Source: Defluviitaleaceae bacterium (GTDB lineage Bacteria; Bacillota; Clostridia; Lachnospirales; WRAX01). Taken from it: 64,000 nt of DNA. The stretch lies in NCBI GenBank assembly GCA_009785555.1, contig WQWB01000001.1, positions 1 to 64,000 of the forward strand, given 5' to 3'. The position numbers and the translations under genes are program-made. How positions within the stretch are numbered: the stretch's first letter is position 1; each line of letters opens with the position of its first letter. Below are positions 21,841-57,474 of this stretch, one piece after another. Below the pieces are notes generated by a model. It was not told the DNA's origin, ran no database searches, and worked only from the letters and a program-made list of their open reading frames with translations.

Positions 21841-23103
21841 ATGACAAAAGTTATGACAATTTCCTCAAAATTGAACTCAATACGAAAAAAGCTGGGCATT
21901 TCGGAATCGACAGTTGCCTTAAACTTGGGATACCATATCAACAAGTTTATAGAGCTTGAAAACGGCGAGGCTACCATTTCCAACGAGCTTTTATCTAAGT
22001 GGAAGTTGGCTCTCGGCATCCCGGAAGTGCCAATAACAGACGTCGAGGTTCAGGCCTTTGAAGAATCGTTGTGGAACTGGCGCACGCTGATAAACTCATG
22101 GCTTGTTGACCTGGCTCGCGAAGGGCTGCACAAACTCAAACGCTGCGCCGAGCTGTCCTGCGAGCCGCATCTACAGCACGTCTACACGCTGATAAGCATA
22201 GGTTATTTCAGCATCGTTGACGATAATGAAGCAGCGGATAGGGCATTACAAATCCTAGCGGTTGATTATCTTAACCTTTCAACTATCAACAAAATACGCT
22301 TCCACACCATCCGCGGCAACCGTTATGCAAATAAGCATAACTACGCTAAGGCGTTTGAAGAACTGCATGAGGCATACATATTAAATGACGGCTCCAGCAT
22401 AGCTGGGCTTGGGTTATATTATGCGTTGGCGCAATGTTTAACTGTTTTTGGCTTTTCGTATAAAGCTATAGATCTATTGACAAAAACACGTGAAATGTAT
22501 AAAGCCGCGGGGGATGAAGTTACTTTAATATATTCAAACATTCCGCTTGCCTTAAACTATTCCCGTATCGGTGAGTTTGATAAGGCTATGCAGTTACTTA
22601 ACGAATCTTTAGACCAACAACCGGTTACGTCTTTATACCCCTCCATTTATTATGGTTATGCTAATCTATATAAAGCGATGGGTGATTATGATAAAGCGTT
22701 GGAGTTTTGTGAAAAAACTATAGAAAGCATTGATCTTAATAGCGAAATATATTTAAACGCTTTATATTTAAAAGCAGAAATTTTTACACTCCAAAATAAT
22801 ACAAAACCTCTATTAGAATGTATAGAAGAAGGACTAACCGCTTCCATCAATAATTACAGATCCTTGATAAGTTTCAACACAATAAAGCATATGAGAAATT
22901 TAAATAATGAAGAATCATTAAGTTACATAATAAATACATCAATTCCTTTTTTCGAGGAAGAGAAATATTATCGCACAGTTATAGAATATAATTTAAAACT
23001 ATGTGAGTATTTTGAAAAATGCGGTAACCATTCAATGGCTTTAAACCATCTAAAACAATCAATGAATTATGAACAAAAACTTTCAAAGGGTGATATTTCG
23101 TGA
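21841..23103 (+). CDS. XRE-family HTH + TPR transcriptional regulator (RNPP/NprR-like), paralog 2
   Basis: Homologous to 1367..2662 (HTH, ESLWNWRTLINSWLVD, TPR-like AT-rich C-terminal half). Its stop overlaps a peptide gene. Confidence 0.7.
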   Translation: MTKVMTISSKLNSIRKKLGISESTVALNLGYHINKFIELENGEATISNELLSKWKLALGIPEVPITDVEVQAFEESLWNWRTLINSWLVDLAREGLHKLKRCAELSCEPHLQHVYTLISIGYFSIVDDNEAADRALQILAVDYLNLSTINKIRFHTIRGNRYANKHNYAKAFEELHEAYILNDGSSIAGLGLYYALAQCLTVFGFSYKAIDLLTKTREMYKAAGDEVTLIYSNIPLALNYSRIGEFDKAMQLLNESLDQQPVTSLYPSIYYGYANLYKAMGDYDKALEFCEKTIESIDLNSEIYLNALYLKAEIFTLQNNTKPLLECIEEGLTASINNYRSLISFNTIKHMRNLNNEESLSYIINTSIPFFEEEKYYRTVIEYNLKLCEYFEKCGNHSMALNHLKQSMNYEQKLSKGDIS

Positions 23104-23279
23104 AAAAGGTTATTAAAATTAGTATTCCAATCTTAACAGTATTACTTTTATTTATAGCAATGACAAAGCCTATGTTTTCAGATCCAGGCCCTATCCTCCC
23201 ACCACTACCACCGTGCCCGATTTACGGTATAGACGGCAGAAGCATAGACCCATGCGAGCCGTGCGTCGAAGAAAGATAG
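23100..23279 (+). CDS. small secreted Cys-rich propeptide (59 aa, GTG start overlapping the regulator stop)
   Basis: VKKVIKISIPILTVLLLFIAMTKPMFS|DPGPILPPLPPCPIYGIDGRSIDPCEPCVEER. Confidence 0.5.
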   Translation: MKKVIKISIPILTVLLLFIAMTKPMFSDPGPILPPLPPCPIYGIDGRSIDPCEPCVEER

Positions 23280-23324
23280 CTTTCAAAAAAATAAGCCTGC
23301 CAAATAAAACGCACAACAAAAACG

Positions 23325-23353
23325 TCATTGCGAGCATCGCGAAACAATCCAGA
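23325..23353. repeat. GTCATTGCGAG...CAATCCAG unit (single arm)
   Basis: GTCATTGCGAGCATCGCGAAACAATCCAG. Confidence 0.4.
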
Positions 23354-23404
23354 AATTAAAATAATTAAAGATATATGAACAAAACCTATGGAAGGGGATT
23401 TGAC

Positions 23405-23587
23405 ATGAAAAAATTTATGAGATATATTTCTATACTTATAGTGACTATTGTTTTGTCTATTGGCTTTTCTATATCCTTAACCGCCGGAGGAGGAGATCCC
23501 GTTCTCCCACCACTACCGCCCTGCCCGATTTACGGCATAGACGGCAGAAGCATAGACCCATGCGGGCCATATACGGACGAAAAATAA
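23405..23587 (+). CDS. small secreted Cys-rich propeptide (60 aa), second copy
   Basis: MKKFMRYISILIVTIVLSIGFSISLTAGGG|DPVLPPLPPCPIYGIDGRSIDPCGPYTDEK. RBS-like AAGGGGA upstream. Confidence 0.55.
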   Translation: MKKFMRYISILIVTIVLSIGFSISLTAGGGDPVLPPLPPCPIYGIDGRSIDPCGPYTDEK

Positions 23588-23659
23588 CCGTAGGGGCGAA
23601 CTGTGTTCGCTTAAACCTATCGGTTGCACAATGCTTGACGAACACAGTTCGTCCCTACG
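23588..23659. repeat. CCGTAGGGGCG hairpin repeat (full palindrome)
   Basis: GTAGGGGCGAACTGTGTTCG...CGAACACAGTTCGTCCCTAC, 20-bp arms. Confidence 0.5.
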
Positions 23660-23758
23660 TTGGTAAGCGACTTACTCTTATCACTTACACTATGTCCAAT
23701 CTGCGACCCGTACGGTAAAAGCATAGACCCATGCGAACCGTATACGGACGAAAAATAA
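23660..23758 (+). pseudogene. remnant of a third peptide gene copy (no signal peptide): ...LCPICDPYGKSIDPCEPYTDEK
   Basis: The 3' end and the downstream CCGTAGGGGCG repeat duplicate those of the 23405 gene. Only a TTG start is available. Confidence 0.3.
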
Positions 23759-33847: not shown

Positions 33848-34129
33848 ATGGATAAAGAAACGATCAGCGCAACCGAAATAAACAAATTCGTATACTGCCC
33901 TAAGCAGTGGTACTATATACGCATACACGGCGAAAAGGCCCTGCGCGAAATGTACCGGGAAATGTTCCCGGAGCGCGCGCATAAAACAAACGAATCGTTT
34001 GTAAAGGGCAACGCCTTCCACGAAAACTTCATGCGGCGGGAGAAAGCGCGCATCCTCAAACGCCGCCTTCTTATTTTTGCCGCCCTCGTCATCCTTTTCG
34101 GCGGCCTGCTTATTTTATTTGCGTTATGA
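33848..34129 (+). CDS. Cas4-like N-terminal segment (YCPKQWYY Cys motif, G..FHE motif) with a hydrophobic tail
   Basis: Matches the Cas4/DUF83 N-terminal region. Ends in an ATGA overlap with the next ORF. Confidence 0.4.
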   Translation: MDKETISATEINKFVYCPKQWYYIRIHGEKALREMYREMFPERAHKTNESFVKGNAFHENFMRREKARILKRRLLIFAALVILFGGLLILFAL

Positions 34130-34617
34130 AGACGATAAAACAAAAAAGACCCAAACTGCAAATACGCGGCTACAAACTGATATACACCGACACTAAAGCC
34201 GGCGGCGGCGATATGGAAATTAGCGGCCGGTTATTGCGTTGCCCTAAATACGAGCTAAGCGGCAAACCCGACTTCATCTTTGCCCGCCGCAAACGCTTCA
34301 TCCCCGTAGAATTAAAAAGCGGCAAGCTTGGCGAAGCAACCGAACCGCGCCGCAACGACCTCATGCAGCTAATCTGCTATTTTTTCCTCATCCAAAGCGA
34401 ATTCGGCATCAAAGTACGCAAAGCCCACTTACTCTACGGCGACACAATGTTCGTGATTAAAAATTACCGTAACCTTCGTAACGAATTTCTGACGGTTTTA
34501 GCTGAAATGCGTGAAATGCTTGAAGCCGGAGAAAGTTTCATTAACGTAGAAAAAGAATACACAAAATGCCGCTACTGCGTCTGCCGTGAAACAGTATGCG
34601 GCGTTTTAGACTCTTAA
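34126..34617 (+). CDS. Cas4-like PD-(D/E)xK nuclease core (DUF83) with a C-terminal Fe-S Cys cluster
   Basis: GKPDFIF (motif II), VELKSGK (motif III), QLICYF (QhxxY), C-terminal CRYCVCRETVC. Confidence 0.6.
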   Translation: MKTIKQKRPKLQIRGYKLIYTDTKAGGGDMEISGRLLRCPKYELSGKPDFIFARRKRFIPVELKSGKLGEATEPRRNDLMQLICYFFLIQSEFGIKVRKAHLLYGDTMFVIKNYRNLRNEFLTVLAEMREMLEAGESFINVEKEYTKCRYCVCRETVCGVLDS

Positions 34618-34667
34618 CGAGATGATAAAATCTAATAAATCTGTTTTAATGTTAAATAAGTATAGAG

Positions 34668-34730
34668 GAATTACTTTGAAATAGTAAAAAATTTAGCTTG
34701 CTAAAATTTTATTGCTATTTCAAAGTATGG
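34668..34730. promoter_or_regulatory. conserved ~60-nt palindromic element (copy 1) upstream of rlmD
   Basis: AATTACTTTGAAATAGTAAAAAATTTAGCTTGCTAAAATTTTATTGCTATTTCAAAG, near-perfect 24-bp inverted repeat. Paralog at 46378. Confidence 0.45.
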
Positions 34731-34829
34731 CTGGGCAACGCGCAAGCGTCCCAGCCTGTTCGTAGAATAACTACGCATGTAGTTATTCTACGAACATTCC
34801 TCTGTATAACCATAACTTTGGAGATAGCT

Positions 34830-36194
34830 ATGAGCACAATAGACCTTGAGATTACAAATATTAACGGCGATGGGCATGGCGTGGGGCGTGCAGATGGTTT
34901 TGTATTTTTTGTTGACGGCGGCCTGCCCGGCGATTTCCTTAGCGTCGAAGTCATAAAAACAAAAAAACACTACGCAAATTGCCGTATACTCGAAGTCATA
35001 ACACCGTCCAAGCATCGCGTCGCGCCTCCGTGCCCTGCATTTGCTCCTCTTCGTTCGCTTCACTCACCAACCCTCCCAGATGCCGGATACCCAAGTGCCA
35101 GGCAGCAATCGAGCCGCTGCGGTGGCTGTCAATTATTACATTGCGATTATGCTTCTCAGTTAATATTTAAAAAGCAAATCGTCGTTGATGCGATAACCCG
35201 CATCGGCGGTATACCAAAGCCCCCCATCGCTGATGTCGTTGGCATGGACAACCCGCTCAATTACCGTAACAAAGGCGTATTTCCAGTCTTTTTTCACGAA
35301 AACAAGGGATTTATCGGCATGAATGAGCCGCGAAGCGATAGACTTATACCCGTCGACAACTGCCTTCTCCAACATCCCGCTCATAAAGCCATCTTGGATG
35401 CCATCCGCAAATATACAAACCGCCAATGCAGGGGTATACACCGTATAATGGTTCGCGTCGGGTTTATGACCGGCGACGTGATGGCAGCAATTTCCGCCGA
35501 CAGTTCCGTTGATGCCTATGCCGATTCTATCACAGCCGACCTTGTATCCGCCGGAGCGGCCACCGTGCTGTTCAGCAGATCAAAGACGTCGGGTAATCAA
35601 TACATTGATGATTTCCATCCAACATATGGAGCTGGGTACATTACAGATTATATCGGCGACCTTAAGTTCAAAATCTCCGCTTCATCTTTCTTCCAAGTCA
35701 ACCCGATACAAACCAAGGTGTTATATGACATCGCTCTCGCCCAAGCTAACCTTACGGGCCACGAGAATGTAATAGACGCTCATTGCGGCGTTGGGAGCAT
35801 CGCACTCTGTGCATCCCGCCGCACAAACGAAGTAGTCGGCATAGACATATCCGCCTCATCTATCCGCGATGCAAACACTAATGCAAAAATTAATAACATT
35901 ACAAATGCACGCTTTATTTGTAAGCCATCCGATGCCGCTATCCCGCATTTGTTAACAGATAATTCAGTTGTCATACTTGACCCTCCCCGCGCAGGATGCG
36001 AGACGGCTCTGCTAAATGCTCTCATTGCCACCCCCCCAAAGCGTATCGTTTACATATCTTGCGACCCGGGTACGCTGGCGCGTGACCTAAAAATACTTAC
36101 GAACAGCTGCTTTTCACTGGTTGATGTACGGCCTGTTGACATGTTTCCGATGACGTCGAAGATTGAAGTTTCTTGCCTACTCGAACGGAAATAA
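34830..36194 (+). CDS. rlmD: 23S rRNA (uracil-C5)-methyltransferase RlmD/RumA family (TRAM + Fe-S + SAM MTase)
   Basis: TRAM N-terminus, Cys cluster CP...CGGCQLLHC, SAM motif HCGVGSIAL, C-terminal DPPR. Confidence 0.8.
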   Translation: MSTIDLEITNINGDGHGVGRADGFVFFVDGGLPGDFLSVEVIKTKKHYANCRILEVITPSKHRVAPPCPAFAPLRSLHSPTLPDAGYPSARQQSSRCGGCQLLHCDYASQLIFKKQIVVDAITRIGGIPKPPIADVVGMDNPLNYRNKGVFPVFFHENKGFIGMNEPRSDRLIPVDNCLLQHPAHKAILDAIRKYTNRQCRGIHRIMVRVGFMTGDVMAAISADSSVDAYADSITADLVSAGAATVLFSRSKTSGNQYIDDFHPTYGAGYITDYIGDLKFKISASSFFQVNPIQTKVLYDIALAQANLTGHENVIDAHCGVGSIALCASRRTNEVVGIDISASSIRDANTNAKINNITNARFICKPSDAAIPHLLTDNSVVILDPPRAGCETALLNALIATPPKRIVYISCDPGTLARDLKILTNSCFSLVDVRPVDMFPMTSKIEVSCLLERK

Positions 36195-36338
36195 AATAAA
36201 TACATATTACACCAAGCGATCAGATATCTTCGTTTTTATATCCTTCCATTCTCCTTTATGCAAGCAGGTTTGCCGTTGACAGCCACTATGTAAAATGATA
36301 TACTCAATAATATCAATGTTAAACAACACTAAGGAGAA

Positions 36339-38023: not shown

Positions 38024-38044
38024 TATCTAGCATAAAAAGAAGAT

Positions 38045-38080
38045 GAGCAAATTATGCTCATCTTCTTTTTAGCACCTAAG
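38045..38080. terminator. bidirectional rho-independent terminator
   Basis: AAGAAGATGAGCA...TGCTCATCTTCTT stem then TTTT. Confidence 0.55.
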
Positions 38081-39894: not shown

Positions 39895-41442
39895 ATGATA
39901 AAAATGTTAGCTATATTGCTATCCATAGTTGTGATTGTCGCTGTATTGGCACCTTATAGCCTTGATGCGCTTAGCGAAGATGGCGGGCAATCGCTTAACA
40001 TTCGAGGAAGCAGGCTAAGCTCAACTTCAACCCATACCCTTTCCATTAAAGAAGATGGTGGTTTATGGGCCTGGGGTGTAAATCAATATGGTCAATTAGG
40101 CGACGGCACAACAATAAACCGTTATGTTCCTACACGTATCGGTACAGCTTACAATTGGATAAATATCTCCGCCGGAAGGACTCATACATTGGCAATCAAC
40201 GACGGCGGAGAGTTATGGGCTTGGGGTTCAAACGCTGCCGGACAATTGGGCGATGGCACAATAACAGATCGCCACACCCCAACACGGATAGGAACTTCCA
40301 GCAACTGGATAGATATTTCTGCAAATGGTTTCTATTCCATAGCAATTAACGCTGAAGGCGAGTTATGGGCTTGGGGTTCAAACACTTTCGGTCAATTAGG
40401 TGACGGCACAACGCTAGACAGGCACACTCCAACGCGCATAGGTACCGCCAACAATTGGATGAGTATTTCCACGGGAATCAATTTTTCCTCCCTAGCAATT
40501 AACGCTGATGGCGAATTATGGGCTTGGGGTTCAAACGTTTTTGGACAATTAGGCGACGGCACAACGCTAGACAGGCACACTCCAACACGCATAGGTGCCG
40601 CCAGCAATTGGATAAATGCTTCTGCAGGGGCTAACCACTCAATAGCAATCGACGCTAGTGGAGAATTGTGGGCTTGGGGTTGGAATTCGTTCGGACAATT
40701 AGGTGATGGTACAACAATAGACAAACACACCCCAACGCGTATAGGTACAGCCAGCAATTGGGTAGATATTTCTGCTGGGAGCAGCCATTCGTTTGCATTT
40801 AACTCCTATGGTGAGTTATGGACTTGGGGCAGTAATTGGTTTGGCCAATTAGGCGACGGTACAATTACAAACAGCTACACCCCAATGCTTCTAGACACAA
40901 CAGGTAATTGGATATTTGTTTCCGCGGGAAGCCAATTATCCGTAGCAGTTAATTATAATAATGAATTATGGGCTTGGGGTTTGAATAGCGACGGACAATT
41001 AGGCGACGGTACGAAGATAAGCAGGCTTTTACATGTGAGGATATTCCCACTAACAACTATCCCTGACCCGCCAATAAACGTACACGCATCCCCCGGCGAC
41101 GGATACGCAACGGTATACTTCGACCCGCCCGATAACGACGGCAACAGCTCTATCCTATATTTCACCGTAACGGCAAACCCCGGTGGCTACACGGCTACAA
41201 GCGTGTTCACCCCAATAGTTATATCCGGCCTTACAAACGGCGTAGAGTACACGTTTACGGTTACTGCCACAAATTCAGCCGGGGCTGGTGCACCCTCAGA
41301 AGCATCCAACCCCGTAACGCCAACGGACTTTGGCACAAACCCACCAACTGGTTTGCCAAACATTACTTTATATTTAATCCCCTTATTAGCCTTTGCTGCT
41401 ATTTCGGCTATTTCATGGGGTCTCTATTCAAAAAAACGATAA
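39895..41442 (+). CDS. RCC1-repeat (7-bladed beta-propeller) surface protein with an FN3-like domain and a C-terminal TM anchor
   Basis: Signal peptide, 7x [28 protein letters not shown] repeats, C-terminal hydrophobic anchor + KKR. Confidence 0.8.
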
Positions 41443-42601: not shown

Positions 42602-42710
42602 TAATTAATGATCGGTATAAACCATAGAGATAAAGCCTCCAGATAATATCCGGGGGTTTTATAATATAATTATACTTTACAAACCTAATAAAAACTGTTA
42701 AAATACTTAC

Positions 42711-44826: not shown

Positions 44827-46245
44827 ATGAAGAAAGCAATTTTGGCATTAGTATTGGTATTTATTTTTGTTCTCTCTTCCTGTTACGGCATTACCCATGA
44901 TGACTACAACCGCGGCGTTACCGAGTATTACCGCCTCGTCGGCGAACTTGACCGCCTTATTGGTGAAATCGACGGCGTTATACAAGAACTTGCCGCAATG
45001 CGCGCCGGGATCCATATCGCGCCCGCGTCGGCCGACGTTCCATACGGCTTTGACGCCGTGCCGCGCGCGGAATATACCTACAGCTTCAGCTCCGCACACG
45101 GCGGGATGATGATAACGGGATTTACCGGCTCCGCACAAAACCCGGCTGTTTTAGACAATGTACCCGTTACGGCTATCGGCAACGGCGCTTTCCGTAACCT
45201 ACCCATAACCTCCGTACACATCCCGGAAACGGTTATCCACATCGGAAGCGACGCGTTCAGCAATACCGGGCTTGAAGGCGTCGTCCTGCCGCCACGCTTG
45301 CAATCCGTCGGCAATAATGCCTTCGCCGGCACTAACATTACGGAGCTGATTATACCAGGAAGCATGACGGAGATACCTACTGGCAGCTTTCGCAACATGC
45401 CATATCTAGAGTCCGTAACGGTAAGCTACGGCGTGAGAAGGATCGCCGAGGGCGCATTCAACTCAAACCCAGCACTTTACCGCGTAATTTTACCGGAAAG
45501 CGTTACGGAAATTGGCGCACAAGCCTTTCAACAAGCCCACAACCTAAGATATATAAATATTCCGCACGGCATTACGGAAATAGCGCACAGCACTTTCTTG
45601 CAGACAACCAACCTACGTAAGTTAATTATACCGGAAAGTATAACGGTTATAGGGCTCTCCGCTTTTTTCCAATCAGGCTTAACCGAAGTTATCATCCCCG
45701 CAACCGTTGGACTTATAGTTGACAACGCGTTCGCAGAAATGCCGTATTTACGGAGCTTCACCATAAAAAGCGCGGAAACAGTTATTTCTCCGGGTGCGTT
45801 TAGAAATAATCGTGCTTTGGAGACCGCCATCCTTCCCGATGGTATGGTAAATATACCGGAATCTATGTTCCGCGGTGCGATATCGCTAAGCGATATCAAT
45901 CTGCCCAATACTGTTATCGAAATAGGCGTACAAGCATTTAACGACACTCCTAGCTTAACCTCAATCCATTTGCCGCATGGGCTTGAGAGGATTGAAAATA
46001 TGGCGTTTTCTGGCAGCGGTCTTACGGAAATTACAATACCTGCCACAGTTACATTCATTGGGAGCAATGCTTTTGGGGCTAATGCAAACCTCACACGCGT
46101 ATATTTTGAAGGAAACGCACCGGAAATGGTAGGCCAAGTATTTTGGAACCATCACCCCGGCCTGGTAATCGTCCACTACGCCGACGCGGAAGGATTTACG
46201 AACCCGTGGAACGGCGTGCCAACGATGATAAGGGAACGGCAATAG
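44827..46245 (+). CDS. BspA-type leucine-rich-repeat lipoprotein
   Basis: Lipobox VLSSC, ~22-aa LRR repeats (IPxSVTxIGxxAFxxxxxLxxI). Confidence 0.75.
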   Translation: MKKAILALVLVFIFVLSSCYGITHDDYNRGVTEYYRLVGELDRLIGEIDGVIQELAAMRAGIHIAPASADVPYGFDAVPRAEYTYSFSSAHGGMMITGFTGSAQNPAVLDNVPVTAIGNGAFRNLPITSVHIPETVIHIGSDAFSNTGLEGVVLPPRLQSVGNNAFAGTNITELIIPGSMTEIPTGSFRNMPYLESVTVSYGVRRIAEGAFNSNPALYRVILPESVTEIGAQAFQQAHNLRYINIPHGITEIAHSTFLQTTNLRKLIIPESITVIGLSAFFQSGLTEVIIPATVGLIVDNAFAEMPYLRSFTIKSAETVISPGAFRNNRALETAILPDGMVNIPESMFRGAISLSDINLPNTVIEIGVQAFNDTPSLTSIHLPHGLERIENMAFSGSGLTEITIPATVTFIGSNAFGANANLTRVYFEGNAPEMVGQVFWNHHPGLVIVHYADAEGFTNPWNGVPTMIRERQ

Positions 46246-46377
46246 GGTTTCATTCAAAATATCTCAAAACTACAAATTTTTATAACCCATTTTATTTTTA
46301 GTAGCAACTGTATATATATAAAGCCGTTTAATTTGAAAACAAATACCGTTTTCATGTTAAGCGGCTTTATTATATAG

Positions 46378-46440
46378 AGAAATTACTTTATAAACAGTAA
46401 AAAAATTAGCTTGCAAAAATTTTTACTGTTTTTGTATTAC
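46378..46440. promoter_or_regulatory. conserved ~60-nt palindromic element (copy 2) upstream of murC
   Basis: AATTACTTTATAAACAGTAAAAAAATTAGCTTGCAAAAATTTTTACTGTTT. Preceded by the hairpin AAGCCGTTTAA...TTAAGCGGCTTT. Confidence 0.45.
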
Positions 46441-46517
46441 GGACATGGAAATTGTCAATAAACTATGTTATACTTATCTGACCATTATTTATTTGAATTT
46501 TAGAATGGGAGCTATAT

Positions 46518-47846
46518 ATGGATAGATTTACCTTGCAAGGCAAAAAAATACACTTTATAGGCATCGGCGGCGCTCATATGAGCGGGTTGGCCGAAATGTG
46601 CCGCCTCTGGGGTTTAAGCGTCAGCGGATCAGACGCGGTAACCAGCGACGCCACGGCAAAACTTATGTCAAGCGGTGTACGCATCCAGATAGGCCATAGT
46701 GCGGATAATATTGATGATAACACCGACTTGGTTGTCTACACATCCGCCGTCAAGCCCGGCAACCCGGAATTTGAGCGAGCAAAAGAGCTTTCTAACAGCG
46801 GCGCGGTACTTATGGATAAAGCAGGCCTTGTCGGTTTAATTATGGAGAATTACGAAAAGTGTATTTGTATAGCCGGCTCCCACGGGAAGACGACGACAAC
46901 GGCGATGATAGGCGAAACCATTTGGGGACTTGGGATGAACCCTACAGTCGTAAACGGCGGCGTCTGCACGCGCCTTGGCACGTCCATGCTCCTCGGCGGC
47001 GATAAATACTTCGTGGTAGAGGCGGACGAATATTACGACGCTTTCCTCAAAATGCATCCAACCGTCGGCGTAATCCTTAATATAGAGCACGACCATACCG
47101 ACTATTTCCCAACAGAAATGTCCATATATGAAAGTTTTAGGAAATTTGCGGAAAACATTAACCCGGACGGTGCGCTTATCGTTAATAAGGATGTAAATCA
47201 TTTAGAATATCTTACGGACGGGTTAAAATGCCGCGTTATTACTTTCGGTGAGGACGGTGCGGATTTTAATGCCGGCAACGTAAAGAACCTTAACCTATCC
47301 GTACCCGGCAAGCATAATGTGATGAACGCGCTGGCGGCAGTTGCAGCCTGCTTCGCGCTTAATATTGATATAGAAGATATTGTTTGCGAACTTACCAAAT
47401 TTACGGGTGCAGGACGACGGTTCCAACTGCGCGGCGAACTTAATGGCGCAAAGATCTACGATGACTACGCACACAACCCAACAGAGATACGCGCAACATT
47501 GTCGGCTGCAAAAAGCCTAAATCCAAGCCGCCTCATCGCCGTTTTACAGCCTCATACGCGATCACGCACTTTAGAGTTTTTCGACGATTTTGCGGCATGT
47601 ATGGATAATGCTGATGAAATCGTGCTTTTAGATATATTTACCCCAGCCGGCCGCGAAGAGGGGCATATCAATATTTCATCCGAAGATTTATGCAAAGCCT
47701 TTACGGATAGAGGTATAAATGCCGTCTACCGCGGCTTGGTTGACGGCAAATTTACCGCCGCAAACGAATATTTACGCCAAATTATTAAACCGGGAGACAT
47801 GGTTATAATTATGGGCGCTGGGGATAACACAAAAGTTTTAGCATAA
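46518..47846 (+). CDS. murC: UDP-N-acetylmuramate--L-alanine ligase
   Basis: IHFIGIGGAHMSGLA N-terminus, Mur ligase ATP motif GSHGKTTTT. Confidence 0.9.
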   Translation: MDRFTLQGKKIHFIGIGGAHMSGLAEMCRLWGLSVSGSDAVTSDATAKLMSSGVRIQIGHSADNIDDNTDLVVYTSAVKPGNPEFERAKELSNSGAVLMDKAGLVGLIMENYEKCICIAGSHGKTTTTAMIGETIWGLGMNPTVVNGGVCTRLGTSMLLGGDKYFVVEADEYYDAFLKMHPTVGVILNIEHDHTDYFPTEMSIYESFRKFAENINPDGALIVNKDVNHLEYLTDGLKCRVITFGEDGADFNAGNVKNLNLSVPGKHNVMNALAAVAACFALNIDIEDIVCELTKFTGAGRRFQLRGELNGAKIYDDYAHNPTEIRATLSAAKSLNPSRLIAVLQPHTRSRTLEFFDDFAACMDNADEIVLLDIFTPAGREEGHINISSEDLCKAFTDRGINAVYRGLVDGKFTAANEYLRQIIKPGDMVIIMGAGDNTKVLA

Positions 47847-47916: not shown

Positions 47917-48147
47917 ATATCAACAAATTGTTGATATCTATGTTGATAAATAAGTGGATAACCTAATAAAATATTGTAAAATTAACTATTTATATGTTGA
48001 TAACTGTCGAGTTGCCTAATTATCCTTGATTTTATCGCATTTTGGCAAAATCATTTGTGGATAATCAACAGTTATCAACATAGATTTTGTGGATAACTGT
48101 TGATAACTATACCAAACATTACTATAGCACTAACTAACCTATCCACA
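47917..48147. other. oriC: oriC part 1: cluster of ~10 DnaA boxes (TTATCCACA and one-mismatch TTATCAACA) upstream of dnaA
   Basis: Boxes at 47953, 48057, 48088 and 48139 match 8-9/9. TTATCAACA variants at 47917, 47929, 47941, 47995, 48072 and 48098. Confidence 0.7.
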
Positions 48148-48175
48148 TCAATGTTCACATTAATTGGAGAATAAA

Positions 48176-49579
48176 ATGACAAAAGCAAAAATAACAGCTT
48201 CCGAATTGTGGGAGCAAACCATCAATGAACTGGCGGAAACAGGTGAATTATCAGACATCGGATACAACGCTTGGTTATCAAACGTCACGCCGGTTAGTTT
48301 TGATGGAAATAATTTAGATTTACTTGCGGCTGATGAATATGTTAAGGAAACAATTGAAAACAGGTATTTAAAAAAAATAGATAAAATCACGGCCATTAAA
48401 CTTGGCCGAAAGATTATCATTAATATTGACCATCGCCGTACGGGTGCCGCAGATGTTACGGCAGATTCCGAATACGATGACGAAAACACCTCCACCCCAC
48501 CGGCAATTTCTCCACAACAGGCGCGTACAAAAAATTCTCATATAAACAACACTCTTATACGCAGATATACATTCGATACATTTGTAAAAGGCAAGCATAA
48601 TGAGCTGGCCTTCGGCGCATGCAGAGCTGTGGCAGAAAACCCGGGCGTTACTTCATACAACCCGTTATTTCTGTACGGCGGCGTCGGCCTCGGCAAAACG
48701 CATCTTATGCACGCCATCGGCAATTACGTTACCGAATTTGACAAAAACCTCAACGTCATCTACGTTACATCCGAAGATTTCGTAAACGACTTCGTAGCCG
48801 CCATCCGTGCCGACAGGCCTCAAAAATTCCGCGAAAAATACCGTGACGTAGACGTTCTAATGGTTGACGACGTGCAGTTCCTCGTCAACAAAATACTCTC
48901 ACAGGAAGAGTTTTTCAACACCTTTAACGCGCTTTTCCATACAAACAAGCAAATCGTTCTCTCAAGCGACAAGCCGCCATCCCACCTTACCACGCTTGAA
49001 GAACGCCTTACCTCACGATTCGGTTCCGGCTTGGTCGTAGATATCTCATTGCCGGATTACGAAACGCGCCTCGCGATACTTGAAAAAAAGGCGGAAAAAG
49101 AAAAAATACATATACCAAACGAAATATTGCGTCACCTTGCCGCAAATATAGATTCAAACATTCGTGTACTTGAAGGCGCGTACAACCAAATAATAGCCCG
49201 CGCAAAACTCACCAATACGGAGGTTAATATAAACCTAGCATATGAGGCTTTAAAGGATATATCAAACACGGCAGCAAAGACGGAGCTTAACATACCGCAT
49301 ATCCTTAAATTCATAGCGGATAAATACGTCTGTACGCCGGACGAATTGCGGTCTAAGAAACGCACGGCCAATCTATCCCATGCGCGGCAGGTTGCCATGT
49401 TTATTACCCGTAAAATACTTAATTGCCAACTTACATCTATCGGCAAGGAGCTTGGAGACAGAGACCACTCCACAGTTCTCCATGGTATAAACCGGATTAC
49501 AGAATTGCTTGAAACCGATAAAAAACTGCAGGCTGAGCTGGAGGTTTTGGAAGAGGAAATTAGGCATGCCGCAAAATAA
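48176..49579 (+). CDS. dnaA: chromosomal replication initiator DnaA
   Basis: AAA+ Walker A GGVGLGKTHL, C-terminal DnaA box-binding HTH. ATG at 48176 with a GGAGA RBS; the track ORF opens at TTG 48164. Confidence 0.95.
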   Translation: MTKAKITASELWEQTINELAETGELSDIGYNAWLSNVTPVSFDGNNLDLLAADEYVKETIENRYLKKIDKITAIKLGRKIIINIDHRRTGAADVTADSEYDDENTSTPPAISPQQARTKNSHINNTLIRRYTFDTFVKGKHNELAFGACRAVAENPGVTSYNPLFLYGGVGLGKTHLMHAIGNYVTEFDKNLNVIYVTSEDFVNDFVAAIRADRPQKFREKYRDVDVLMVDDVQFLVNKILSQEEFFNTFNALFHTNKQIVLSSDKPPSHLTTLEERLTSRFGSGLVVDISLPDYETRLAILEKKAEKEKIHIPNEILRHLAANIDSNIRVLEGAYNQIIARAKLTNTEVNINLAYEALKDISNTAAKTELNIPHILKFIADKYVCTPDELRSKKRTANLSHARQVAMFITRKILNCQLTSIGKELGDRDHSTVLHGINRITELLETDKKLQAELEVLEEEIRHAAK

Positions 49580-49682
49580 TATTTTATGAAAGTTGTTTTA
49601 TATATTTATAGTAAGAGTTGTACTAGGGTTTGTGGATATGTTTAAAATTTAATATATTATTGTAGTAATGGGATTATATGGT

Positions 49683-49803
49683 GTGGACAATTATAGGATA
49701 ACTTGTGAAAAGTAAGAAACTTATCCACATTATAGATGAAATATTGAAAAGGCTTATAATTATCAACATTTGATTAATGTTATCCACAATGTTTTGTTGA
49801 TAA
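49683..49803. other. oriC: oriC part 2: DnaA-box cluster between dnaA and dnaN, with an AT-rich candidate unwinding region at ~49580-49680
   Basis: TTGTCCACA (rc) at 49683, TTATCCACA at 49721 and 49780, TTATCAACA at 49761 and 49795 (rc). Confidence 0.6.
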
Positions 49804-53082: not shown

Positions 53083-53170
53083 GAGATTACGGGTCAACGT
53101 AGAGTTAATTCGCGAGATTCCGGATATAGCCCGGAACGCGAATTAACTCTACGTAGCCAGCAATGACGGT
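53083..53170. repeat. CCGCAAT/GTCATTG-type hairpin element with a 17-bp perfect stem
   Basis: GATTACGGGTCAACGTAGAGTTAATTCGCG...CGCGAATTAACTCTACGTAGCCAGCAATGAC. Confidence 0.5.
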
Positions 53171-55703: not shown

Positions 55704-56609
55704 TTACTCCATATTTATACTTAGTGAAAGCTGGTGTATGCCATTTGATAAACGTTTTTTTGCGATTTCTGCGTAATTTTCGTCTATTTCAATTCCAATG
55801 TAATGCCTATTTAAATTTTTTGCGGCTAAACATGTTGTACCTGAACCGGCAAAAGGATCGATAATAATCGCACCCTCTTGTGTAACAAGTGATACAAGAC
55901 GCTCCATTAATTTTAGCGGTTTCTGTGTTTCATGTAATCCATGGTCTTCTTTATCGTAGCAAACAGAAAATATGTTTGTGTTGGCTATGCTTTCATTCCA
56001 AGCACCAACATTATGTTCAATAACATTGTCTGCAAGCGTTCCACCTGTTTTATAAGGTTTTTGAAACCATAAAATAGGTTCAAATAGTGGACGTAAATTT
56101 GCAACACGCCAACCTTCCCAATCCTCAGCTCTTGTGTTATCGCCACGTCTTTTATATATTTCTGAAATACGTTGAGCGCGGTGCGGGGCTGTTGTTTTTT
56201 CCCAAGCTAACATATCTTTAAATGTAAAACCTGCATCTTCAAGAGCTACTATACATCTATGAGCAAAACGACGACCAGCAAAAATAAAACATGAAGCACC
56301 TGGTTTTAATATTCTAAGCCAGTCAAATGCCCATGATGAACACCATTCTTGGTATTCAAAGGGTATCTTTTTATCCGCATCGCTCCATCCGTTTAAAGGT
56401 TTGCCACGGCGTTTAAATAATGTTCCGCCGTTAATTTGTGCCGTTGATGCACCGCCTAAGGCAGAGTTAGTGTTATTATGTAATATATCCCATTCATTAT
56501 AAGATATTCCATAAGGAATGTCAGAAATAATGGCATGAGCATATTCGTTGGGCAATTTTTTCATTAATTCTATAGAATCGCCGCAAATAATGTTATCTAA
56601 ATTAATCAC
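55704..56609 (-). CDS. beta-class DNA methyltransferase (N6-adenine or N4-cytosine), partner of the adjacent endonuclease
   Basis: Motif IV SDIPYG precedes motif I IIDPFAGSGTT. GTG start at 56609 with an AGGAGG RBS. Low GC. Confidence 0.8.
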   Translation of the reverse strand: MINLDNIICGDSIELMKKLPNEYAHAIISDIPYGISYNEWDILHNNTNSALGGASTAQINGGTLFKRRGKPLNGWSDADKKIPFEYQEWCSSWAFDWLRILKPGASCFIFAGRRFAHRCIVALEDAGFTFKDMLAWEKTTAPHRAQRISEIYKRRGDNTRAEDWEGWRVANLRPLFEPILWFQKPYKTGGTLADNVIEHNVGAWNESIANTNIFSVCYDKEDHGLHETQKPLKLMERLVSLVTQEGAIIIDPFAGSGTTCLAAKNLNRHYIGIEIDENYAEIAKKRLSNGIHQLSLSINME

Positions 56610-57474
56610 GGCAAATCCTCCTACTAACATAAGAATTAATTTGCCGGATTTTTTCATCTATTTTTTTATTTTTTATTAATTCGTCAATTGCTTGATCACG
56701 TGAATATGATAAAATTATTTTACGTTCATTTTCCCAATATGTCTTTTCCTTTTCGCTTCTGCTTGTTATATTTTGTGAATATGAAGTTAGTGCTTTTTCA
56801 AATTCATCGTATGTATATCCGATAAGAAAAGAAAAACATCGATCAAATATAGGAATAAAACATATTTTTCTTTGTGCAGCTGTTATTATGTGGGAATGAG
56901 TTTCACTAAAATTCCATATACGAGATAAATTAATTTTTCCATTTTCGGTTATATTATTTTTTAGTAAAAAAATCAAATGCTCCCAACTCAACAAACAAAC
57001 ATTATTATCAATAGACTGTGCAAAAATTTGACTTTGTTTAATTGGATAATGAAAATAAGGAGCGCAAAGAACTGCATAATCACTATCTTTACGCCATCCG
57101 GATAAAGCTGTAACTTTGAAATCTTTTTGGTTTTTAGCGGTTCTGCTCATACGAAATGATTTGGCATCTGCTACAAGAGTGTATCCATGTATATTTGATT
57201 TTGCAATTACGTCAGCCGAATCAGCACGTTTTGAAACAATAGTTGAGTTTAAGCCTAATTCACGAAAAGCGCGTGATAATATCGCATCAAATGATTTTGC
57301 AAATAATTTTTCTTCTGTGGAATCATGGGCAATGCTTTCCGGTATTGTGCCGATTTGTGAGATTATATCCAAAAAATTATTTGTATCTGATATAAAAAGG
57401 TTCAGCCTTTCAAAAGCACTATTAAAACCGTATTTTGCGTATTCATTAATTAAATGCACAAATTCATTAAACAT
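56602..57474 (-). CDS. type II restriction endonuclease, HindIII-like PD-(D/E)xK
   Basis: D..(15)..DAK catalytic spacing (SADVIAK...TLVADAKSF), low GC, 8-nt overlap with the methyltransferase gene. Confidence 0.55.
   Translation of the reverse strand: MFNEFVHLINEYAKYGFNSAFERLNLFISDTNNFLDIISQIGTIPESIAHDSTEEKLFAKSFDAILSRAFRELGLNSTIVSKRADSADVIAKSNIHGYTLVADAKSFRMSRTAKNQKDFKVTALSGWRKDSDYAVLCAPYFHYPIKQSQIFAQSIDNNVCLLSWEHLIFLLKNNITENGKINLSRIWNFSETHSHIITAAQRKICFIPIFDRCFSFLIGYTYDEFEKALTSYSQNITSRSEKEKTYWENERKIILSYSRDQAIDELIKNKKIDEKIRQINSYVSRRICRD

Follow-up and report, generated by a model that had tools for sequence, protein, structure and literature searches.

The stretch of DNA considered here (hereafter the window: the whole 64,000 nucleotides, positions 1 to 64,000 of contig WQWB01000001.1 of an uncultured Defluviitaleaceae bacterium) carries on its + strand the genes rlmD (34830-36194; TIGR00479, 330.5 bits) and murC (46518-47846; TIGR01082, 385.6 bits), each of which is preceded by a copy of one and the same intergenic palindromic element. 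Copy 1, in front of rlmD, follows a cas4-like gene with its stop codon at 34617, and copy 2, in front of murC, follows an LRR gene with its stop codon at 46245, the product of which returned only distant proteins in a similarity search. The flanking genes all lie on the + strand and both copies have the same orientation, each between co-directional genes. The end of the hairpin is separated from the start codon by 103 nt at rlmD and by 82 nt at murC, in agreement with the original prediction, which had placed the element about 100 nt upstream of two + strand genes. DnaA boxes also occur in the window, outside the element, and cluster at 47941-48147 and 49631-49803; the window holds in addition a family of GTAG-headed, G+C-rich REP-like palindromes, in seven copies.

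The element had been predicted at 34668-34730 and 46378-46440, and both loci were found there: the core pattern AGTAAAAAANTTAGCTTGCNAAAANTTT has exactly two matches in the 64-kb window, at 34683-34710 and 46396-46423, and none across 100 dinucleotide-preserving shuffles. Using blastn, 34661-34710 could be aligned with 46373-46423 (51 nt, 88% identity, E 7e-8), and a local alignment of 34634-34710 with 46338-46423 reached a score of 80 against 24 +/- 4 for shuffled sequences, the maximum of which was 41; the length and conservation of the two copies therefore exceed what chance would give, as was originally claimed. The shared unit begins about 27-35 nt further to the left than first reported (at 34634 and 46338), and we delimit the repeat as 34634-34727 on the + strand for copy 1, composed of the left flank and of a hairpin that we call A (nhmmer 72.7 bits), and as 46338-46436 on the + strand for copy 2, which has a shortened right arm and carries the insertion GCGGCTTT, seen as an 8-nt indel in the alignment (nhmmer 77.7 bits). 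These are the only two nhmmer hits in the window.

The common left flank includes a block that is not palindromic, TATAGAGRAATTACTTT, and is, together with the loop, better preserved between the copies than are the arms; the loop region TTAGCTTGC is identical at 9 of 9 positions. The right arms, by contrast, have diverged by indels, and the homology stops within the right arm, with no significant similarity between the two loci 3' of the hairpins and no significant alignment of the two upstream regions 5' of the unit. Homology that extends over about 77-95 nt with indels, and that has a one-sided, non-palindromic flank, argues for common descent and not for two sites kept by one binding protein. 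These alignments show the two loci to be paralogues of a single AT-rich intergenic module, about 95 nt long, that are related by duplication or transposition and not by convergence.

No third copy was found in about 81 kb, comprising the window with 8.5 kb to its right and 8.6 kb to its left and leaving about 97% of the genome outside if a size of about 3 Mb is assumed; the source DNA is present unchanged in an ENA assembly and in a Logan assembly. Across one genome for each of 185,579 species, the 21-base core has four chance matches, three of which read like coding sequence, and there are eight more in the JGI metagenomes. Neither the arms nor the left flank are present at any of these matches, their nhmmer scores are at most 16.7 bits compared with 73-78 for the true copies, and their numbers fit the chance estimate for an A/T-rich 21-mer. 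As the window's own organism was not matched, it is absent from these genome and metagenome collections, and the scans are consequently silent on further copies in its own genome. Searches of viral contigs with two patterns gave chance or coding matches only, and blastn against phages and plasmids gave only matches with E of 0.2 or higher.

The MurC and RlmD proteins of the window are 100% identical to proteins of an NCBI MAG of a Defluviitaleaceae bacterium. The nearest other relatives have MurC proteins that are 55-59% identical and RlmD proteins that are 47-48% identical; with the next-best MurC at 59% and the next-best RlmD at 48%, sampling of the lineage is poor. The element is missing from the DNA around murC and rlmD in these nearest relatives, which are not syntenic (47-59% protein identity). 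Rfam has no match in the window at the gathering score and, at E up to 10, only generic hairpins far below the threshold, and a literature search for the string TTAGCTTGCTAA found it in no other context than that of 16S primers and probes for Bacteroides. Conservation was seen in no other genome, so that any selection on a function is putative. The original prediction had associated two copies only, not conserved in related genomes, with a local duplication of no function, and this is the distribution found within about 81 kb and among distant relatives, no close relative being present in the data. The element is thus a real, non-chance, lineage-specific, two-copy intergenic hairpin repeat.

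In copy 1, inverted-repeat search and folding as RNA and as DNA all delimit hairpin A (34672-34727, + strand), whose inverted repeat has arms of 23 nt at 34672-34694 and 34705-34727 that are 87% complementary. The predicted stem has about 25 bp, nearly all A-U, with two 1-nt bulges, and is topped by a CUUG loop (34697-34700) with G34696-C34701 as the closing pair. Its RNA minimum free energy (MFE) is -21.4 kcal/mol on the + strand (z -4.45) versus -17.4 on the - strand, and the fold as DNA has a z of -5.8. Copy 2 has arms of 19 nt (46392-46410 and 46413-46431, 84% complementary), so that the palindromes of the original prediction are present in both copies and the description "near-perfect" was generous. 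The corresponding hairpin A' (46392-46431, + strand; inverted repeat and RNA folding) consists of a perfect 12-bp lower stem and a G(CUUG)C cap (46409-46414) with three A.A mismatches under the cap, and is weaker than hairpin A, with an MFE of -11.6 kcal/mol and z of -2.2; the 51-nt segment around it (46388-46438) reaches -8.6 kcal/mol, with z -1.7. The outer stem of copy 1 is absent from copy 2, where three top pairs have also been lost. A U5 tract (46429-46433) comes directly after the lower stem of hairpin A', whereas at the matching position of copy 1 we find UAUUUC after the upper stem, following which the pairing continues. Palindromes of such length are rare, 14 in total in the window, and the stem of the hairpin has only two to three G-C pairs.

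Both copies present G(CUUG)C as the cap when the + strand is read; the - strand would give a CAAG loop, which is no special tetraloop. The non-Watson-Crick pairs that can still pair are G.U pairs on the + strand only, one of them in hairpin A (T34685.G34714) and two in the pairing P1 described below. Because MAFFT misaligns the right arms, the upper-stem pairs of the two copies were matched by hand (n = 18); 13 of the 18 are identical, and in copy 2 three loop-adjacent pairs have become A.A mismatches. There is one compensatory double change (T34682-A34717 to C46395-G46428) and one change from a wobble to a Watson-Crick pair (T34685.G34714 to T46398-A46425). For one compensatory pair out of six substitutions in the stem, p is about 0.14, a rough estimate that is not significant with two sequences. 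Selection on the base pairing of the stem is suggested by this comparison.

Upstream of rlmD, hairpin A is one arm of a predicted four-way junction of 149 nt (34660-34808), and the region 34630-34835 folds with -86.6 kcal/mol and a z of -12.9. The pairing P1, the stem that closes the junction, joins a left strand, GTATAGAGGAAT (34660-34671, + strand), which lies within the conserved left flank, to a right strand, ATTCCTCTGTAT (34796-34807, + strand), and includes two G.U pairs that are possible on the + strand only. P1 has 11 contiguous pairs that abut the hairpin block, and at least 10 were obtained in 8 of 100,000 shuffles of the flanks (p about 1e-4). The two other arms, both on the + strand and in copy 1 only, are hairpin B (34729-34756, predicted by folding), which is G+C-rich and has a GCAA loop of the GNRA type, and hairpin C (34757-34796, found as an inverted repeat and by folding), which has a perfect 18-bp stem (100% complementary) and a GCAU loop; neither has a second copy in the genome DNA searched. 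Copy 2 is without P1, hairpin B and hairpin C, and the corresponding fold has a z of -2.0. The four-way junction is thus a single instance, for which covariation has no comparison sequence. Fold prediction, which had been proposed as a check on the element, gave stronger folds for copy 1 (z -4.45 for the hairpin, -12.9 for the junction) than for copy 2 (z -1.7 to -2.2).

The signals around the two copies are arranged differently. At copy 2, the LRR gene is followed by a long terminator-like hairpin, hairpin X (46314-46375, + strand; MFE -27.5 kcal/mol, z -7.9), which includes a match of the terminator scan (46346-46364). Of hairpin X, the loop and the 3' arm (46338-46372) fall within the shared unit, and the base is made by the insertion GCGGCTTT of copy 2. 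The best sigma-70-like promoter for murC, TGGAAA-17-TGtTATACT (46446-46474, + strand; 10.5 points in the consensus scan), is outside and downstream of the repeat, giving the order LRR gene, hairpin X, element, promoter, murC, and murC probably has, on this consensus match, its own promoter downstream of the element. Another promoter-like sequence, TTTTTA-16-TATAAA, ends at 46322, just upstream of the copy 2 unit. Between the stop codon of the cas4-like gene (34617) and rlmD, scans found no consensus terminator and no good promoter; the best promoter-like site in this spacer, TTTAGA-15-TGaTAAAAT (34605-34631, + strand), is a consensus match only and is located just upstream of the unit. The terminator scan reports neither hairpin A nor hairpin A'. 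Classic G+C-rich terminators are not enriched in the region (22 found for 26 expected), and another long hairpin flanked by A/U tracts is seen at 38033-38071, between two convergent genes, where a terminator is expected. Strong promoters with TGn-extended -10 boxes occur in the window, for example at 36276-36304 and 42676-42704.

The explanation that we tentatively favour is that the element could be a duplicated RNA hairpin module acting as a weak terminator, a 3'-end protector or an insulator. Transcripts from the upstream gene (cas4-like or LRR) would read into the module and fold there, the + strand RNA forming a long A-U stem, A-rich on its 5' side and U-rich on its 3' side, capped by the stable G(CUUG)C. 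Such a hairpin might be a weak terminator of the bidirectional type, a barrier to 3' exonucleases, or both, and the upstream unit would thereby be insulated from rlmD and murC. The hairpin in front of rlmD would have been built into the larger four-way-junction RNA, as an intercistronic or leader structure, while the one at murC would be partly decayed and followed by the U5 tract and then by murC's own promoter.

A reading at the RNA level is supported by the G(CUUG)C cap and the G.U pairs on the + strand, by the compensatory change, by the stronger fold of the + strand and by the P1 junction, and the terminator-like part of it fits with the hairpin at 38033-38071, situated where a terminator is expected, and with the lack of enrichment of classic terminators. 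Further points in its favour are the + strand orientation of all the flanking genes, the lack of a consensus terminator from the cas4-like stop codon to rlmD and, at copy 2, the U5 tract after the lower stem with the murC promoter beyond it. Against a terminator or protector, the fold of copy 2 barely beats that of shuffled sequences (z -1.7 to -2.2), both hairpins fail the criteria of the terminator scan, copy 1 having only UAUUUC after its upper stem, and the stronger hairpin X is already present upstream of the copy 2 hairpin. Against RNA pairing, the covariation is not significant and the three loop-adjacent pairs are broken in copy 2. A structured RNA, which was among the candidates of the original prediction, or a terminator-like element gains from the better fit and the + strand fold, and is held back by a record of one compensatory and one wobble change versus three broken pairs.

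It is also possible, if on balance doubtful, that the element has no cellular role and is a low-copy remnant of a REP- or MITE-like palindrome, or a neutral ectopic duplication, that is now decaying. Its lineage-specific distribution is as this would have it, with only chance matches in the 185,579 species genomes, the JGI metagenomes, the viral contigs, the phages and the plasmids and with no element around murC or rlmD in the nearest relatives, and so is the loss from copy 2 of the outer stem and of three top pairs. In addition, rlmD and murC share no obvious pathway, and the seven-copy GTAG-headed family mentioned above indicates that mechanisms spreading palindromes may operate in this same genome. 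However, a spreading repeat agrees poorly with just two copies in about 81 kb, with the lack of terminal inverted repeats and of a target-site duplication and with the absence of any transposase or RAYT gene from the window; the loop and left flank are preserved better than the arms, and copy 1 sits in a very stable and precisely abutting four-way junction, which looks used and not decaying.

The junction could also be viewed as part of a transcript that starts at the element itself. A leader or small RNA with a promoter just upstream, which we consider rather unlikely, would at rlmD have the unit as the 5' portion of a leader with structure (P1 with hairpins A, B and C) and at murC would be a short independent transcript ending at hairpin A' and the U5 tract. 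Promoter-like sites are indeed found directly upstream of both units (with ends at 34631 and 46322), murC's own promoter comes only after hairpin A', and a structured RNA is what the z of -12.9, the CUUG and GNRA loops and the + strand G.U pairs of the junction would indicate. However, the two upstream promoter-like sites are not homologous to each other, and sites of this kind are expected by chance in AT-rich DNA. A hairpin followed by a U5 tract is present in copy 2 and not in copy 1; copy 2, for its part, has none of P1, hairpin B and hairpin C. No Rfam family corresponds, even at E up to 10, and the junction has one instance only.

A promoter within the palindrome appears quite unlikely. 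It would place an extended -10 box at the centre of the palindrome, the A-rich left arm being spacer or UP-like DNA, and would drive rlmD and serve as a second promoter for murC. TG-n-TAAAAT in copy 1 (34699-34707, TGcTAAAAT) and TG-n-AAAAAT in copy 2 (46412-46420, TGcAAAAAT) do occur at homologous positions, no other promoter-like site is seen from the element to rlmD, the strong promoters of the window use TGn-extended -10 boxes, and some of the chance core matches elsewhere sit in AT-rich, intergenic-looking DNA beside TTGCNA. By contrast, the -35 hexamers are poor (GAAATA, 2/6; TAAACA, 4/6), the -10 box of copy 2 is without its first T, neither site was reported by the consensus scan, and the match cannot be separated from the shared ancestry of the copies. 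Moreover, a start within the right arm would exclude the left strand of P1 from the transcript, yet the P1 pairing is highly non-random.

An operator, at which a dimeric regulator would co-regulate rlmD and murC, has turned out to be the least supported of the three candidates put forward in the original prediction, and we judge it very unlikely. The palindrome has two-fold symmetry around GC-TT-GC, with TTAGC/GCTAA perfect in copy 1 and mismatched at one position in copy 2. Each copy precedes a + strand gene, and at murC the predicted start follows the centre at a distance of about 70 nt, from which activators could act. However, the conserved stretch is far too long and asymmetric for an operator, the YAG...CTR arm motifs are 33 nt apart in copy 1 and 31 nt apart in copy 2, and the joint change of both arms (T-A to C-G) is a better fit to pairing than to half-sites recognised by their sequence. 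The two genes also differ in where the element lies relative to the promoter, with no comparable promoter after it at rlmD; there is no CodY, CIRCE, parS or DnaA-box match, and nothing similar is found close to murC or rlmD in distant, non-syntenic relatives (loci L007, L008, L023 and L025; 47-59% identity). A + strand RNA hairpin therefore fits better than an operator, which two sequences do not amount to proving, and a role at the RNA level is more likely than an operator.

The weakest proposal, which we regard as highly improbable and which depends on the modelled fold, is that the junction at 34660-34808 would be a new cis-acting structured RNA controlling or stabilising the rlmD mRNA, the CUUG-capped A-U hairpin being a module that can be used repeatedly for recognition by a protein or an RNase and is also found upstream of murC, next to the replication origin; the junction before rlmD is nevertheless the sole part that could hold something new.

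Several known sites and systems were compared with the element and rejected. For parS and the DnaA box (TGTTNCACGTGAAACA and TTATCCACA) there is no match in the element, the sole parS-like match (3 mismatches) being at 55881; the CodY box AATTTTCWGAAAATT has no match overlapping either copy at up to 3 mismatches, and CIRCE (TTAGCACTC-N9-GAGTGCTAA) has no match at up to 3 mismatches. Sites for sigma-54, sigma-H and the sporulation sigma factors, for LexA, Fur/PerR, Rex, TnrA and WalR, and hix-like sites were dropped, as they showed no fit by eye. As attL and attR of an integrated element, the copies would enclose 11.7 kb of housekeeping genes with no integrase or recombinase. The short ORFs that might have encoded a leader peptide are unlike between the copies, and a minus-strand promoter, TTTACT-18-TATACT, would run antisense into the upstream gene and has a spacing of 19 nt in copy 2.

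The value of the element is mainly one of annotation: it shows that two housekeeping genes may share a striking upstream palindrome that is no regulon signal. If the hairpin does shape transcript ends, A-U-rich, tetraloop-capped hairpins would be substituting for canonical terminators in a poorly sampled lineage of the Clostridia.

Among known systems, the cap G(CUUG)C is identical to that at the apex of helix 6 of 16S rRNA, AGCUUGCU, the whole of which is present in copy 1; no other part of the rRNA is present, and what the two have in common is a stable loop motif and not homology. The CIRCE operator of HrcA has the same inverted outer pentamers, TTAGC...GCTAA. By contrast with CIRCE, these are here 2 nt apart and not 17, the ACTC/GAGT parts are absent and the downstream genes are not chaperone genes. 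The BOX, RUP and SPRITE elements of Streptococcus pneumoniae and the bcr elements of the Bacillus cereus group are lineage-specific intergenic repeats of about 100 nt that have hairpin potential and in some cases influence how neighbouring genes are expressed. Their copy numbers run from tens to hundreds, and RUP and bcr1 have terminal inverted repeats, whereas the present element has two copies and neither terminal repeats nor target duplications, and nothing similar in sequence to it turned up in the collections scanned. It differs likewise from a MITE, as the ends of the unit (34634/34727 and 46338/46436) are not mutual inverted repeats and there is no flanking direct repeat.

Two systems come closer. 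A bidirectional intrinsic terminator resembles the element in its stem-loop, which has A-rich sequence on the 5' side and U-rich sequence on the 3' side, in its position 3' of the stop codon of a co-directional gene and, as far as copy 2 is concerned, in the U5 tract. An intrinsic terminator would have a G+C-rich stem of 5 or more pairs, a loop of 3-8 and a U-tract after it; the element has no G+C-rich stem, the A-U stem having mismatches in copy 2 and copy 1 being without a proper U-tract. The terminators of unrelated genes are, moreover, normally not homologous over 80-95 nt. The REP/BIME sequences of enterobacteria and Pseudomonas are, like this element, dispersed imperfect palindromes limited to intergenic DNA. 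They are transcribed as hairpins and can stabilise the upstream mRNA or attenuate read-through. However, the REP palindrome has 20-40 nt with a 5' GTAG head, whereas here a 56-nt hairpin lies in a 95-nt unit that is nearly pure A/T and starts with TACTTTG, with no GTAG; there are two copies in about 81 kb, and no RAYT (Y1 transposase) is found among the genes called there. A member of neither family, the element is closest in its features to REP-type palindromes or to hairpin terminators.

The upstream region of rlmD, in which copy 1 of the shared ~95-nt AT-rich hairpin module is found (34634-34727), is predicted to fold into a compact four-way junction (34660-34808, + strand). Its 12-bp closing stem, which includes two G.U pairs (34660-34671 paired with 34796-34807; p about 1e-4), carries three arms, namely the AT-rich hairpin of copy 1 (34672-34727), a G+C hairpin capped by a GCAA loop, and a hairpin whose 18-bp stem is perfectly paired; linker bases are nearly absent between the helices. 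The fold of 34630-34835 reaches -86.6 kcal/mol (z -12.9). The junction has no match in Rfam and no second instance of it was found.

Copy 2 of the module (46338-46436, upstream of murC) overlaps a long, mostly A/T hairpin (46314-46375; -27.5 kcal/mol, z -7.9) located 3' of the gene for an LRR (BspA-like) surface protein (44827-46245). The shared unit includes the loop and the 3' arm of this hairpin, and copy 2 therefore bears two long AT-rich hairpins in tandem; because of an 8-nt indel, an insertion in copy 2, copy 1 is without the G+C base of such a stem. A further hairpin (38033-38071; -25.8 kcal/mol), which has a perfect 17-bp stem together with an A-tract and a U-tract and is situated between the convergent genes for rubrerythrin and a 164-aa protein, is likely a bidirectional terminator.

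A REP element of classic appearance occurs seven times in the window (23590, 23769, 23941, 24020(-), 29783, 31059 and 39725(-)); it is made up of a GTAG head and a G+C hairpin, CCGTAGGGGCG(A/G)(A/T)C....G(T/A)(T/C)CGCC, the stems of which show compensatory variants (GCGAAC/GTTCGC versus GCGGTC/GACCGC). A REP copy follows each of three small paralogous units arranged in tandem (23051-23757), whose repeats measure about 300 and 170 nt and share 67-86% identity. A CGTAG head is also present on an inverted repeat at 53097-53154, in which two perfectly matching 18-bp arms (ACGTAGAGTTAATTCGCG and CGCGAATTAACTCTACGT) are separated by 22 nt. Repetition within a coding sequence is seen in the RCC1-repeat protein gene (39895-41442), which has seven internal repeats of 150 nt.

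A stand-alone Cas4-like PD-(D/E)XK nuclease gene (34126-34617; it scores 71 bits with TIGR00372, where the cut-off is 65) adjoins a YhaM-like exoribonuclease gene, and neither a CRISPR array nor further cas genes were seen within the window. On the - strand (~55704-57474), genes for a HindIII-like restriction endonuclease and an N6/N4 DNA methyltransferase are identified by the Pfam labels of genes called on the matching contig.

Finally, the window has 43 DnaA boxes with at most one mismatch, where 15 +/- 4 would be expected. Clusters of DnaA boxes on either side of dnaA (48164-49579), at 47941-48147 and 49631-49803, constitute a bipartite oriC. The first cluster is about 1.5 kb from copy 2 of the module, and the gene immediately upstream of dnaA is murC rather than rpmH, an unusual arrangement.
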